Part shown: in pieces, positions 6,022 through 23,788 of the stretch | Numbering within the stretch: the first letter of the stretch is position 1 | Layout of the letters: each line of letters starts with the position of its first letter | Source: Patescibacteria group bacterium | GTDB taxonomy: Bacteria; Patescibacteriota; Minisyncoccia; Phycocordibacterales; UBA9973 | Assembly (NCBI GenBank): GCA_040390725.1 | Contig: JAZJXT010000001.1 | Span: 152,586-216,585, forward strand | Length of the DNA stretch: 64,000 bases | Reading direction: 5' to 3' | The notes under the pieces: model-generated | The model's database searches: none | What the model was told of the DNA's origin: nothing | The model's input: only the letters and a program-made list of their open reading frames with translations | Made by a program: the position numbers and the translations under genes

Positions 6022-6816
6022 TTATTCGTGTTTCATTGGTTCGTTGTGAAAGTCTTTTTCAAAAAAACCTTTTCTGATTATTAACACTAATACTAGGATA
6101 AGAATCGCAAGCAATAACCATTGAAACAAAGTCGAAGGCAAGAATCCGTGCCATGCAAAGAGGGAATTAGCAGCTAGGTTTGATTTGTCTACAGTAGCGC
6201 TGGCAGGGGTTTCTGTTTTTGCTGTGGTTTTTGTCGAAGTGCTTTTTGATACAGTTTGTGTTGGTGCAGGGCTCGGTGCAGGGTTTACATAAGCTACCAC
6301 CGAAGCTGTAGTGACCGTGAAGAATACTCCATTTGAAGTTCCTCCGCTCGGCATCGGGTTAAAAACACTGATCACATATTTACCGGGAGTCATGACGTCA
6401 CTTGCATTTAAGGTGACTGTTAATTTACCAGAGTTGTTATAGCTGGTAGGGCGGTATGAATTATTGAATTCAGCCATTGAGCCGGGGATAAAGTTTGACC
6501 CTGTTAAAACTACAGCCATGTTTCCGCTTATTTCCGTGACTTCATTTGGACTTACGGAATAAAGTATAGGCATAGGGTTTGAAGTGTTTGAGTTGGTATT
6601 ATTGGTATTGTTGTAATTATAAGTACCGTTTTGATTGTAGTTGTAGTTATAAGATCCATCAGTAGCTCCGCTTTCATAAGAGTATGAATCGCTATATGAT
6701 GCATTTACTTTCATGGGCATTGCTACCAAGGCTAGGGCTAGCACTGCTAATACTCCAAAGCTTTTAAATATTAAGTTTTTATTTATTGATGTATTCATAT
6801 ATAGAAAGTATAGCAC
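6022..6816 (-). CDS. Secreted Asn/Tyr-rich protein with an IPT/TIG-like beta domain and a C-terminal TM anchor
   Basis: 264 aa: signal peptide, low-complexity N/Y/T stretch, PILYSVSPNEV..GKLTVTLNASDV..GKYVISVFNP..FFTVTT and a C-terminal hydrophobic anchor. Confidence 0.5.
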   Translation of the reverse strand: MLYFLYMNTSINKNLIFKSFGVLAVLALALVAMPMKVNASYSDSYSYESGATDGSYNYNYNQNGTYNYNNTNNTNSNTSNPMPILYSVSPNEVTEISGNMAVVLTGSNFIPGSMAEFNNSYRPTSYNNSGKLTVTLNASDVMTPGKYVISVFNPMPSGGTSNGVFFTVTTASVVAYVNPAPSPAPTQTVSKSTSTKTTAKTETPASATVDKSNLAANSLFAWHGFLPSTLFQWLLLAILILVLVLIIRKGFFEKDFHNEPMKHE

Positions 6817-11952: not shown

Positions 11953-12534
11953 ATGGATATAAAAGAATTAAATAGGACACAAATGATCATGTTGGCTTTA
12001 CTTTTGAGCTTTGTCACTTCTATTGCCACGGGGATAACTACAGTGACTTTGATGCAACAAGCACCGAGTTCTGTAACTGTACCTATTAATCGTATTGTCA
12101 GGGAGACAGTTGAAAAAGTAGTACCGGCGGATACCTTGAATAAGATTCCAGCATTATCAACAGATCAACAGCAATTGCTCGAAGACTTGAAAGCTATCAA
12201 GCCTCTCACTGTTTCTTTATTTTTAAAAGGCATGAAAGATGATGGTAGTGATGACAAAATTTTGGGCACCGGATTGTTTTTAGGTAATGACAAAGTCGTG
12301 ATAGCTTCAGTAATATCTGCACCAAAAGAAGGCGAGGTGTACGTAGTAAAAAGTGTTTTAGGCGAACAAAAGATTTTAAAAGTTACAGCTGAGAAAGATT
12401 TTACAATTGTTGAACTTGTAAATAATGACACTACTGTTACTCCTGATGCTGGTAAAAAAACTGATACCACCACAGCGCCTGCCGGCACGACTACCACACC
12501 GGATACAACTCAAAATACAGCACCTGCTCAGTAG
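11953..12534 (+). CDS. Hypothetical membrane-anchored protein with a Thr-rich C-terminus
   Basis: 193 aa with an N-terminal TM and a C-terminal TTTAPAGTTTTPDTTQNTAPAQ tail. Confidence 0.45.
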   Translation: MDIKELNRTQMIMLALLLSFVTSIATGITTVTLMQQAPSSVTVPINRIVRETVEKVVPADTLNKIPALSTDQQQLLEDLKAIKPLTVSLFLKGMKDDGSDDKILGTGLFLGNDKVVIASVISAPKEGEVYVVKSVLGEQKILKVTAEKDFTIVELVNNDTTVTPDAGKKTDTTTAPAGTTTTPDTTQNTAPAQ

Positions 12535-19936: not shown

Positions 19937-20796
19937 AATCTAAGATAATTTTATTAAATAGTTTCGTGGGTATTTATTTATTTTTTTTGATGATAGGTTT
20001 TATTTTTACTCCGTATGTTGTATCTGCTCAAGAAAGTATAGAAAGGAATGCCACAATAAATGCAGGCAGTAATGGTATCGTGGAAAAGGTGGCAGCAGGA
20101 GAACTCTTGCCTGTTTCTGTTAAATTATCAAATTTTGGAGGAGGCAAAAGTGTAGATGTTTTAATTCAATATGAAATTTTTTCTGACAAGGGAGAGAAAA
20201 TTTATTCTACAAATGAAACCGTGGCAGTAGAGACTACAGCTAACTTTGTTAAAATAATACAAATACCATACGGAACAGCACCGGGGACTTACACAGCCAA
20301 AACTTCTATTATTTACGACGGACAGCTCGTTCCCGCTACTACTCAATTTAATTTTAAAGTTGAGCGAAAAATTCTAGGTTTATTTGAAAGCGCTTTCTTT
20401 TTATACGGAGGTATTACGATTTTTGTAAGTATTTTTATGGTTTTATTTGTGCATCTTTTGACTAGACATAACCGCAAGGTTAGATCTAGTCCGATTGATT
20501 ATTTTGATATTCCCCGCAACGAAAGAACTTTTTATGAAATTTTAAGTGATGTCATAATGGAAATGCGCGAACGTGTAGGTGATAAAGCTATTGATATTGC
20601 AGCAGGTGTCGAGGGACTAAAGATTGATAAAAAATCCGGAAGAGTATTGTCTCTTTCCAGGGATCCTGCGAAAATTATTTCTGACTTAGTTTCAGCTTAT
20701 GAAAAGTTGCTTGGAATAAAAGTTTTGTCTTTGGTGGACCGTACAGGACTCGAACCTGCCACCCCCTCATTGCAAATGAGGTGCTCTACCAGATGA
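19933..20796 (+). CDS. Hypothetical membrane protein; the 3' end (about 60 nt) overlaps tRNA-Ala antisense
   Basis: 287 aa; the start overlaps the upstream stop (ATGA). The last roughly 20 codons are the reverse complement of the tRNA-Ala gene. Confidence 0.4.
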   Translation: MKSKIILLNSFVGIYLFFLMIGFIFTPYVVSAQESIERNATINAGSNGIVEKVAAGELLPVSVKLSNFGGGKSVDVLIQYEIFSDKGEKIYSTNETVAVETTANFVKIIQIPYGTAPGTYTAKTSIIYDGQLVPATTQFNFKVERKILGLFESAFFLYGGITIFVSIFMVLFVHLLTRHNRKVRSSPIDYFDIPRNERTFYEILSDVIMEMRERVGDKAIDIAAGVEGLKIDKKSGRVLSLSRDPAKIISDLVSAYEKLLGIKVLSLVDRTGLEPATPSLQMRCSTR

Positions 20797-20807
20797 GCTA
20801 ACGGCCC
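20735..20807 (-). tRNA. tRNA-Ala (anticodon UGC), G3:U70 present; CCA encoded (to 20732)
   Basis: Acceptor GGGCCGT/ACGGTCC with G3-U70, D-arm AGCTCATCTGGTAGAGC, anticodon loop TTTGCAA, T-arm GGCAGGTTCGAGTCCTGTA. Confidence 0.8.
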
Positions 20808-22006: not shown

Positions 22007-22083
22007 TTTCTGCTAGACTGGAAGTGTTCTTTAATTAGTAAAGAAACATTCGGGAGTAGCTCAGCGGTAGAGCGATCGCCTGT

Positions 22084-22646
22084 GGAAATTTCCTCCCTCT
22101 GGTATAATGTTCTTATGCCAGACAATAGGAAATATGCTGATAGACGCGAAGCACTTATTAAAGCTGTTGCAAAACGACGCAAGAAAATAAAAGTTCTTGC
22201 TGTCGAGTACAAAGGAGGCAAATGCCAAATTTGTGGATATATGAAATGTATCGGTGCTTTGGAACTTCATCATATTATTCCAAAAGATAAAAGTTTTGGA
22301 GTAGGTGATAAGGGATATACACGTGCATGGAGTATAGTGCAAAAAGAGTTAGATAAGTGTGCGCTTCTTTGTGCAAATTGTCACAGAGAAGTCGAGTCAG
22401 GCATTACGCAGCTTTCTATCGAAAGATAGATCGAAAACGAGGTGAATTCGGGGAAGCCCAAGCTTGTCATGAGCGGGTAATCCCGAGCCAAGCTCCGACG
22501 TAAGTCGGAGAAGGTGTAGAGACTATCCCGTAAGGGAGTAGTGTTCCAAATTTTGGAATCCGAAGCGCCTCGCTTCTAAGTCTTTTGAGTAATCAAAGGA
22601 TATGAAGATGATATAGTCCGTACCATTAGTAATAATGGAATAAACG
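22084..22646 (+). ncRNA. Group I intron (putative self-splicing) in the tRNA-Asn anticodon loop, carrying an HNH ORF
   Basis: It follows an exon-terminal U and ends in G immediately before the 3' exon. The P7-like pairing halves GACTA (about 22530) and TAGTC (about 22616) are present. The ORF sits in a 5' peripheral loop. Confidence 0.6.
22115..22429 (+). CDS. HNH homing endonuclease (intron-encoded)
   Basis: CQICGY...LELHHIIPK...CANCHREVE is a His-Asn-His/zinc-finger nuclease motif. The track start 22082 is a GTG inside the exon/intron boundary; ATG 22115 is preferred. Confidence 0.7.
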   Translation: MPDNRKYADRREALIKAVAKRRKKIKVLAVEYKGGKCQICGYMKCIGALELHHIIPKDKSFGVGDKGYTRAWSIVQKELDKCALLCANCHREVESGITQLSIER

Positions 22647-22691
22647 TAAGCGATTGGTCGTAGGTTCGATCCCTACCTCCCGAGCCAGTTA

Positions 22692-22728
22692 GCAAAGCAC
22701 CTCCTTAAGGGAGGTGCTTTGCTTTTTG
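22692..22728 (+). terminator. Rho-independent terminator after tRNA-Asn
   Basis: gcaaagcacctcc-ttaa-ggaggtgctttgc followed by ttttt. Confidence 0.6.
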
Positions 22729-22866
22729 TATCTCGGGAGAGAAAGCCAACTGCTTGGCTTTCGTGTAGGGAGCGAACAACGGAGCAATAAATTTTCAGTA
22801 GAAAATTTTGTGAGTTGGTGCCCAGACAAAATTTTTTGGCGAAAAAATTTTAGTCGAGGGAGATAC

Positions 22867-22881
22867 CCCTACCTCCCGAGC
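22867..22881. repeat. 15-bp direct repeat of the tRNA-Asn 3' end (ccctacctcccgagc), 180 bp downstream of the gene
   Basis: Identical to 22671-22685. The att-like duplication suggests an old or residual integration site. Confidence 0.6.
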
Positions 22882-22959
22882 AATTAAAATAACCTTAATT
22901 TGCAAGGATTATTTATGTATTCTTACGGGGTTTAAAATTTTTATGATATAATTCTTTTT

Positions 22960-23493
22960 ATGATAGAAAATAGCCAGATGAATGATGCAAAGTTTTCTCC
23001 AAAAAGCAACGATGTTGTTTTTACTAAGGGTCAAAAAATAAATGTTGAACTTACTGATGGTTCTTTGAGTGAGCGTACAGTAATAAACGTTCTTAATTCC
23101 CAGAAAGTAGCAGCTGTCATCGGGCTTAAGTTTGATATTAAAACCCCTATACCAGTATTAATTTTAGACAAAAAAATACCGGGAGGTGCTCTTGCGCATT
23201 ACCATCAAAATTTAGATGTTATTTTTGCATATAATGATACAAACCAAAATGTTATGTGTCATGAAATAATTCACTCATTAGCAATAAAGAAGCCTATACC
23301 AGAAGAATTACAAAAGTTTTATGAAAAGGTGCTAGAAGAAATTCCAGATATAACTAATTTACAACCCAACTTTAGACAAAATATCCATGAATTTATTGCT
23401 GATGCGTATTCCAAGGAGGGTTTTATTAATAACCTTAAAAACCATGGGTTATATGAAGAATTTGAAAAACTTACAAAATATATCTTTGAGTAA
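22960..23493 (+). CDS. Hypothetical protein with an HEIIH (HExxH-like) motif
   Basis: 177 aa; ...NVMCHEIIHSLAIKK... is the only recognisable motif. Confidence 0.4.
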   Translation: MIENSQMNDAKFSPKSNDVVFTKGQKINVELTDGSLSERTVINVLNSQKVAAVIGLKFDIKTPIPVLILDKKIPGGALAHYHQNLDVIFAYNDTNQNVMCHEIIHSLAIKKPIPEELQKFYEKVLEEIPDITNLQPNFRQNIHEFIADAYSKEGFINNLKNHGLYEEFEKLTKYIFE

Positions 23494-23526
23494 TAATCGT
23501 GTGAAAGTTGTGAACACTGTGAATTT

Positions 23527-23788
23527 TATGTATCACCTATACATTTTAAAATGCGTTGATGAAACTTTATATACTGGAATTACCACAGATTTAAAACGCA
23601 GACTAAATGAGCATAATAGTACAAAACTTGGCGCGAAATATACTTCCTCTAGGAGGCCGGTCAAAATAGTTTATTCTAAAAAATTTAAAAATAGGTCTTC
23701 TGCATCCAAGGAAGAATCTAGAATAAAAAAGTTAAAAAAAGTTGAGAAGTTGGAATTGATTAAAGAAGGCTATAAAAATAATATATAA
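23527..23788 (+). CDS. GIY-YIG nuclease superfamily protein (small, stand-alone)
   Basis: MYHLYILKCVDETLYTGITTDLKRRLNEHNS is a classical GIY-YIG N-terminal motif. The start is taken at ATG 23527, not the track start 23387. Confidence 0.65.

Follow-up and report, generated by a model that had tools for sequence, protein, structure and literature searches.

An HNH nuclease gene in a group I intron that splits the tRNA-Asn(GUU) gene of a Paceibacteria-like genome

Group I introns in the tRNA-Asn(GUU) genes of Patescibacteria have been described by Nakagawa, Amikura, Omae and Suzuki (2026, mSystems 11(3):e01536-25, PMC13011429; bioRxiv 10.1101/2025.07.03.662931, July 2025). Their survey of 95 complete genomes found 15 such genes carrying a group I intron between tRNA positions 35 and 36; nearly all of these introns were classed as subgroup IA, and four of them contained an HNH gene (PF01844) (PMC13011429). 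Accurate self-splicing in vitro, with a G-to-C control, was demonstrated for the ORF-less tRNA-Asn intron of GCA_016700035.1, and sequencing of the spliced product showed the insertion to be at 35/36 (PMC13011429). The same study reports that such tRNAs are mis-annotated as Thr(UGU) with an intron at 33/34, that the split tRNA-Asn gene can be the sole copy, and that copies with and without the intron rarely occur in one genome; nuclease-bearing tRNA introns were rare, with more expected, possibly, in draft genomes. According to PMC13011429, the type had been listed earlier as 'Asn.4Ug' (Williams 2020, bioRxiv 10.1101/2020.01.27.920355). The element described here lies in a 64-kb stretch of DNA, referred to below as the window.

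ORF-less IC3 introns, such as those of the cyanobacterial and plastid tRNA-Leu(UAA) genes and of Azoarcus tRNA-Ile, resemble the class considered here in being self-splicing introns of the anticodon loop, but they are without P7.1/P7.2 and without an ORF, and they occupy positions 34/35 or 36/37. The J6/7-P7 segment of the Azoarcus intron is presumably very close to that of the window copy, AAGGUGUAGAGACUA. Most tRNA introns from outside the Patescibacteria are classed as IC (PMC13011429). In Cyanobacteriota, the tRNA-fMet(CAU) intron carries a PD-(D/E)XK homing endonuclease (PF11645; PMC13011429). This too is an anticodon-loop group I intron with its own homing endonuclease, as the window copy appears to be, but it differs in its position (33/34), in the fold of its nuclease and in its host. 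Its enzyme is said to be I-Ssp6803I, reportedly described by Bonocora and Shub in 2001. A cyanobacterial origin of the window was considered and rejected: the exon sequence holds GCGATCGC, but this is the sole copy of the motif in the window, and GC content is 36%.

The window copy agrees with the class of Nakagawa et al. in its host tRNA, anticodon, 35/36 site and U-1 and omega-G boundaries, as well as in an IA-type core with P7.1/P7.2 and in the HNH gene (PF01844) that some copies carry; it is a further copy of the described class. A preliminary description of the locus had named only the Leu, fMet, Arg and Ile tRNAs as known hosts, a list now out of date, and had regarded an Asn host with an insertion after position 35 and an HNH ORF as an unusual combination, which had in fact already been described (PMC13011429). 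As the class is already in the literature and a relative has been shown to splice, the element in itself adds little. The window core is 62% identical to that of the validated Saccharimonadia intron and 71% identical to that of an ORF-less Paceibacteria intron from the same study. The P1 loop measures 324 nt in the window copy and contains the ORF, whereas it is 5 nt long in the validated intron, which has no ORF, and 28 nt long in the ORF-less Paceibacteria intron. The window copy had no match among the supplementary-table sequences examined, and the available parts of PMC13011429 do not discuss ORF placement or phage relatives. Very probably, on our data, a composite and mobile group I intron of this class occupies the tRNA-Asn(GUU) gene of a Paceibacteria-like genome within the Patescibacteria.

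The split gene and its ribozyme

When positions 22050-22083 and 22647-22687 are joined, ARAGORN recognizes a 75-nt tRNA-Asn(GUU) cloverleaf that has an Asn-type body with U1-A72 and G73, CUGUUAA as its anticodon loop and a CCA end encoded in the gene. On the native sequence, ARAGORN with its intron option calls the same gene with a 563-nt intron and the junctions cctgt/...acg/taagc (slashes mark the splice sites). The exon halves given in the preliminary description are thereby confirmed, as are the 563 nt placed between them (22084-22646), following an exon-terminal U and ending in G. The parts of the transcription unit are as follows.

22050..22083, + strand: exon 1 of tRNA-Asn(GUU), with the acceptor 5' strand, D arm, anticodon stem 5' strand and loop nucleotides C32, U33, G34 and U35 (ARAGORN on joined and native sequence)
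22084..22646, + strand: group I intron of 563 nt between tRNA positions 35 and 36 (ARAGORN, Rfam RF00028, covariation)
22647..22687, + strand: exon 2 of tRNA-Asn, from U36, A37 and A38 to the acceptor 3' strand, G73 and encoded CCA (ARAGORN)
22691..22728, + strand: intrinsic terminator-like hairpin (15 pairs) and T-run, which would close the tRNA transcription unit

The Rfam Intron_gpI model (RF00028) matches positions 22369-22639 with 70.8 bits (gathering score 50; E = 5.8e-16), and the alignment spans the full model (1-253); the match is far above chance level. With the Rfam alignment and ORF-less relatives as starting points, we mapped the core by hand and then counted the named structure on an alignment of the ribozyme parts of 64 homologous introns. 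The elements of the core, all on the same strand, are listed in order of position.

22080..22084, + strand: P1 5' strand, CUGU of exon 1 followed by the first intron nucleotide, G (read from sequence)
22407..22411, + strand: internal guide sequence (IGS) C-GCAG, the P1 3' strand (GCAG invariant in the 64-intron alignment)
22415..22430, + strand: P2 hairpin with a GAAA loop (99.7% of cells paired; compensatory changes in each of its 6 pairs)
22438..22444, + strand: P3 5' strand, pairing with 22566-22572 (7 pairs, 88% paired, 3 with double changes)
22448..22486, + strand: P4 (22448-53 / 22481-86) around P5 (22457-59 / 22475-77) and a variable P5 extension
22487..22515, + strand: P6 (22487-89 / 22513-15) and the P6a hairpin (22493-99 / 22504-10, GUAA loop)
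22519..22525, + strand: P7 5' strand, G-A(bulge)-GACUA, pairing with 22614-22619
22526..22561, + strand: P7.1 (22526-37, GUAA loop) and P7.2 (22541-61), with compensatory changes in both
22566..22572, + strand: P3 3' strand (covariation on 64 introns)
22573..22607, + strand: P8 (22573-76 / 22604-07) with an inner hairpin at 22582-22599 (GUAA loop)
22614..22619, + strand: P7 3' strand, UAGUCC
22620..22645, + strand: P9.0 (22620-21 with 22644-45) around the P9 hairpin (22623-28 / 22633-38, GUAA loop)
22646, + strand: omega G, the last intron nucleotide (G in 71 of 71 loci)

The preliminary description had called the intron group-I-like, pointed to pairing halves GACUA and UAGUC, and proposed a covariance-model scan and folding of the intron as checks. 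The scan exceeded the gathering score and ARAGORN's intron option found the tRNA; in the fold, P1-P9 could all be placed, including the P3/P7 pseudoknot and P7.1/P7.2, with every core helix intact, and the two halves proved to be strands of P7 (GACUA at 22521-22525, UAGUC at 22614-22618). P7 is invariant in 64 of 64 introns and 99.7% paired, a consensus match that is uninformative for covariation, and G22521-C22618 is presumed, by analogy, to be the guanosine-binding pair. At the 5' splice site, U22083 forms a U.G pair with G22408 of the guide. P7.1 and P7.2 (97.6% and 89% paired, respectively, in the 64 introns) are the hallmark of subgroup IA, and the presence of both in the window copy points to that subgroup, following the class assignment of PMC13011429. 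A more compact core, lacking P7.1/P7.2, occurs in 11 of the 64 aligned introns, which nevertheless carry the same HNH. GAAA or GUAA forms the loop in each of P2, P6a, P7.1, P9 and the inner P8 hairpin. P10 is weak, consisting of UAA with UUA only, and is not conserved. P1 is short, with four exon pairs and one intron pair, and a 324-nt loop on so short a helix could slow folding.

The structure is borne out by covariation. Across the 64 introns, standard pairs fill 92% of pair cells, as opposed to 32-46% in slid controls, in which the 3' partners were shifted by 1-3 columns; compensatory changes occur in 44 of 60 pairs, and the covariation score of 0.50 compares with 0.06-0.11 in the slid controls and was reached by none of 500 shuffles. 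P4 is 99.5% paired with five of its six pairs covarying, P5 is 97% paired, and covariation is present in all six pairs of P6a and all four outer pairs of P8, the inner P8 hairpin having been read from sequence. P9.0 is paired in every intron (AU 46 / GC 18 at one pair; UA 32 / CG 27 / UG 5 at the other), and because it is fully paired and covarying, the position of the terminal G is fixed. Exons were also located by ARAGORN-anchored parsing in 71 loci, comprising 70 complete relatives and the window; without exception, exon 1 terminates in CUGU, the last intron nucleotide is G and UAA stands at the start of exon 2. The CUGU/GCAG pairing is invariant across these loci, and the pair between intron position +1 and IGS-1 covaries (G-C in 54, A-U in 12, unpaired in 5).

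We infer that the window copy splices as its validated relative does: the gene would be transcribed as a pre-tRNA in which the ribozyme folds P1, P2-P9 and P7.1/P7.2, an external guanosine would attack after U35, and G22646, placed by P9.0, would direct the ligation of U35 to U36 to yield mature tRNA-Asn.

The nuclease gene, its relatives and the probable mobility of the intron

The P1 loop holds the nuclease gene and a putative expression signal.

22100..22108, + strand: perfect extended -10 promoter-like box TGGTATAAT in the P1 loop, separated from the ATG by 6 nt
22115..22429, + strand: HNH endonuclease ORF, 104 aa, in loop L1 of P1 (ORF list, Pfam PF01844)

The 104-aa HNH ORF reported earlier for this intron is upheld by its match to PF01844, which scores 24.6 bits (cut-off 21.4). 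Its family is large (more than 2484 homologous clusters at E <= 0.001), and the named members are Paceibacterota, Staskawiczbacteria and similar. In an alignment of 27 sequences with the pattern CxxC...HH...CxNCH, residues C40, H52, H53, C86, N88 and C89 do not vary, and C37 and H90 hardly vary. These positions cover the two CxxC pairs, the His pair and the Asn and His of CANCH, which are the HNH-motif and zinc-binding residues. The last 23 nt of the ORF overlap the IGS and P2, with the TAG stop codon (22427-22429) inside P2, and translation would have to pass through the guide sequence and P2; the C-terminal G-I-T-Q-L is conserved probably because the end of the ORF also encodes these RNA elements. 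An AlphaFold2 model built from the 27-sequence alignment had a mean pLDDT of 46 and was unusable. A profile search of PDB sequences yielded no significant match to a solved structure, the best non-significant ones being the HNH domain of a group II maturase (E = 0.056) and McrA (E = 0.43).

Gene callers often begin the ORF at GTG 22082, giving a product of 115 aa, a length shared by several database entries. Conservation of the ATG and of the signal upstream of it favours the 104-aa product.

The candidate promoter was recognized as a consensus match. In 67 related introns with a full ORF, TANNNT occurs at the position of the box in 61 and exact TATAAT in 47, a TG extension is present in 39, and the gap between box and ATG is 6-9 nt in 54. 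Among the ORFs of the window, Shine-Dalgarno motifs are rare (found for 3 of the 46 long ones), whereas it is common for a -10-like box to stand immediately in front of the start codon; given these host-style gene starts across the window, the nuclease gene appears to use its host's usual, apparently leaderless design. The arrangement suggests a leaderless mRNA starting at the ATG (A22115), probably produced from the ORF's own extended -10 promoter. Such a transcript would begin downstream of the 5' splice site, so that translation would be kept apart from the splicing-competent pre-tRNA. A two-hexamer promoter scan did not list the box because it has no -35 element. The main text of Nakagawa et al. 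(PMC13011429) mentions neither an intron promoter nor a leaderless mRNA.

A scan of the HNH alignment against one genome per species (GTDB r232) identified relatives in at least 520 species-representative genomes. The best 80 loci from these genomes are almost all in Patescibacteria metagenome-assembled genomes (MAGs); 70 of the 80 are complete split tRNA-Asn genes, all with the intron at 35/36, while eight have one exon only (six of these cut by contig ends) and two are unclear. Over the tRNA and intron, the nearest of these loci are 80-86% identical in nucleotide sequence to the window copy; they come from MAGs whose labels are Nomurabacteria, Paceibacterota or 'Saccharibacteria'. Judged by such labels, the host of the window would belong to the Patescibacteria; the window itself has 36% GC and, as noted, few Shine-Dalgarno sites. 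In most loci, nucleotide similarity to these relatives ends at the tRNA/intron borders, a drop that could reflect slower evolution of RNA genes as well as horizontal transfer. The tRNA also exists without the intron: 40 metagenome contigs contain the uninterrupted 72-nt sequence with at most four positions different, and two of these contigs, L111 (intron-less allele at 6232-6303) and L114, share the window's upstream PLD gene at 66-67% nucleotide identity. Alleles of one target with and without the intron are thus both found in nature, as predicted by homing or by precise loss.

The same HNH lineage is present in phages at 48-69% identity, on at least 506 IMG/VR contigs and in 344 GenBank phage records that include Bastille, Felix O1 and Lak phages. 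The phage genes are free-standing within tRNA arrays, with a median of seven tRNAs within 3 kb, and 63 of 80 phage loci have an uninterrupted tRNA-Asn(GUU) as the closest tRNA on one side. After clustering at 80% identity, a tRNA-Asn neighbour is found in 28 of 39 clusters versus 7.4 expected if the gene lay in a random gap of the array (binomial tail about 1e-12). In the Bacillus phage Bastille, the annotated HNH gene (NC_018856.1, 6037-6480) sits between two tRNA-Asn genes. The 'introns' that ARAGORN's intron option reports in phage tRNA arrays were treated as spurious, being unsupported by Rfam except at one locus, L121; this is the sole phage locus with an Rfam-confirmed group I intron, which looks like the Patescibacteria type. 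Free-standing homing endonucleases are known from phage tRNA clusters, namely F-TflI/II/IV of T5 and the GIY-YIG enzyme SegB of T4 (PMC2330249). Their genes are embedded in tRNA arrays, as are those of the phage relatives, whereas they differ from the window HNH in not being intron-borne and in adjoining uninterrupted tRNA genes; the likeness is one of gene setting.

The mechanism of mobility we consider most likely is homing, in which the HNH protein would cut intron-less tRNA-Asn alleles and repair by recombination would copy the intron into them. The alternative is that the ribozyme is active but the HNH no longer homes, having taken on another role, which could be assistance in splicing or a host nuclease function, or being in decay, with the intron inherited only vertically. 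The protein is indeed very small (104 aa), neither Pfam nor the PDB profile search detected a separate DNA-binding domain in it, and the ORF is truncated in 4 of 71 relatives (L010, L062, L069 and L073), although truncated ORFs in some relatives are what the life cycle of a homing nuclease leads one to expect. This alternative is countered by dN/dS values of about 0.06-0.15 against relatives at dS 0.35-1.5, which indicate strong purifying selection on the protein, and by the constancy of its catalytic and zinc-binding residues. It is also countered by the occurrence of tRNA alleles with and without the intron, including the syntenic L111 and L114, by the association of the same HNH with two different types of ribozyme core, and by phage relatives that act like free-standing homing nucleases beside tRNA-Asn genes. 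We therefore regard loss of homing as unlikely, and the mobile intron with a homing HNH as the better reading of the locus.

Asparagine decoding and the meaning of the locus

No second tRNA-Asn was found in the 64-kb window with ARAGORN or Rfam; by default, ARAGORN and the Rfam tRNA model report six tRNAs in the window and call nothing at 22050-22687. A dependence of the cell on splicing to decode Asn, which the preliminary description had proposed on condition that this is the only tRNA-Asn gene, is plausible. Since only 64 kb of the genome is visible, a second tRNA-Asn may lie elsewhere, and the insertion could then be dead and the split gene a pseudogene, with Asn decoded by the intact copy. 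This is very improbable: every core helix of the window copy is intact, the same arrangement recurs in 70 diverged genomes with compensatory changes, the exons are canonical and match the intron-less functional alleles at all but four positions or fewer, a homologous intron self-splices in vitro, and sole-copy cases have been published (PMC13011429). That the host is instead a tRNA-Thr(UGU) with an intron at 33/34, the parse given by ARAGORN and tFind for many relatives (ARAGORN calls tRNA-Thr(tgt) i(33) at 29 of 70 related loci), can be dismissed with near certainty, because the window intron ends in ..ACG, where the shifted parse gives no tRNA and ARAGORN calls Asn, U1-A72 and the Asn-type body are present in all loci, covariation of P9.0 fixes the omega G, and the spliced product sequenced by Nakagawa et al. 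shows 35/36 (PMC13011429). One 'His' call, like the 29 'Thr(tgt)' calls, results from a two-base-shift mis-parse that occurs when the intron ends in GUG.

In practice, the locus matters for annotation. In a genome like the source of the window, default annotation would score tRNA-Asn as absent, and in relatives it would report a false tRNA-Thr in its place.

Three states of the tRNA-Asn gene are seen: with a free-standing HNH gene beside it, with an ORF-less intron, and with an intron that carries the HNH in L1. The series resembles, in pattern only, a free-standing nuclease and an ORF-less intron that meet at one site and then fuse. We propose tentatively, as a possibility that falls somewhat short of probable, that the HNH forms a lineage specialised on tRNA-Asn, free-standing in phages and an intron passenger in Patescibacteria, with a higher prevalence than was reported and with leaderless expression. 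HNH relatives in at least 520 genomes, compared with four HNH-bearing introns in the published survey, indicate that draft genomes do reveal more, and a nuclease-bearing form that is widespread in Paceibacteria-like drafts bears on the published view that tRNA introns in this phylum are largely immobile. If the proposal is true, HNH-bearing tRNA-Asn introns would be far commoner than in the survey of complete genomes, and hence more mobile, and the tRNA-Asn genes of phages and Patescibacteria would present a natural series, from the convergence of an intron and a free-standing nuclease on one site to their fusion. The link between phage nucleases and tRNA-Asn makes a tractable system in which to study how introns come to harbour homing nucleases.

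A conserved element downstream of tRNA-Asn and its surroundings

Directly past the terminator of the intron-containing tRNA-Asn gene lies a conserved element of ~150 nt, copies of which are present at three other loci: L018, one of the best 80 loci encoding relatives of the intron HNH nuclease (drawn from at least 520 genomes with a relative), and L111 and L114, metagenome contigs on which the tRNA-Asn gene is uninterrupted.

Copies of the ~150-nt element
window 22729-22885, + strand, directly past the tRNA-Asn terminator
L018 3634-3832, + strand
L111 4612-4780, - strand
L114 1-150, - strand

The window copy is 80-82% identical to those of L111 and L114 across 125-142 nt, and 81% identical to that of L018 across 97 nt. 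The predicted fold consists of a closing stem and three hairpins, with compensatory changes at 14 of 43 predicted pairs, a count that comes from only four sequences. In both the window and L018, the element terminates in a near-copy of the 3' end of the same genome's tRNA-Asn, and the window copy also opens with a copy of the tRNA-Asn 5' acceptor strand. In L111, the gene preceding the element is tRNA-Ala rather than tRNA-Asn. Comparison with Rfam returned zero family matches, even at E <= 10. Possible readings of the element are a small RNA not yet described, a tRNA-like element, and the remnant of an element that integrated at the tRNA 3' end.

Two further features lie near the tRNA-Asn gene in the window.

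20732-20807, - strand, tRNA-Ala(UGC) gene, ~1.2 kb upstream of tRNA-Asn
23387-23788, + strand, 133-aa ORF, ~700 nt downstream of tRNA-Asn, matching the GIY-YIG nuclease family at 57.5 bits (Pfam PF01541); its product may be another mobile nuclease or a housekeeping protein

A tRNA-Ala(UGC) gene recurs 0.03-2.2 kb from the intron-containing tRNA-Asn, in differing orientation, in many relatives (L001, L004, L006, L009, L010, L013, L014, L018 and L021).

Relatives of the intron nuclease

The phage relatives of the intron HNH (IMG/VR loci L121-L200) are free-standing genes within tRNA arrays, and an intact tRNA-Asn(GUU) adjoins the nuclease gene in 28 of 39 clusters, compared with 7.4 expected by chance.

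NC_018856.1 5857-6685, Bacillus phage Bastille, HNH flanked by two annotated tRNA-Asn genes
NC_005282.1 24112-25584, region with a phage HNH relative in a tRNA array

Eleven tRNA-Asn introns carrying the same HNH (L024, L030, L031, L033, L039, L045, L049, L052, L069, L075 and L076) have a ribozyme core of reduced length, in which P7.1/P7.2 are missing and the P3 and P6 sequences differ, which hints either at transfer of the nuclease gene between two intron lineages at one site or at remodelling of the core.

Gene starts across the window

Shine-Dalgarno motifs are scarce across the whole window (3 of 46 long ORFs). A TATAAT-like box that ends 5-9 nt upstream of the start codon is found at many genes (examples at 11953, 15260, 20978, 22960, 56166 and 62617). 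Together, these features suggest that this organism normally makes leaderless mRNAs.

Contig ends at the intron

In many MAGs, the contig ends inside the intron or a few hundred bases away (L001, L003, L019, L037, L040, L056, L068 and L071, among others). Assemblies may often break at the intron element, which would then be undercounted in draft genomes.
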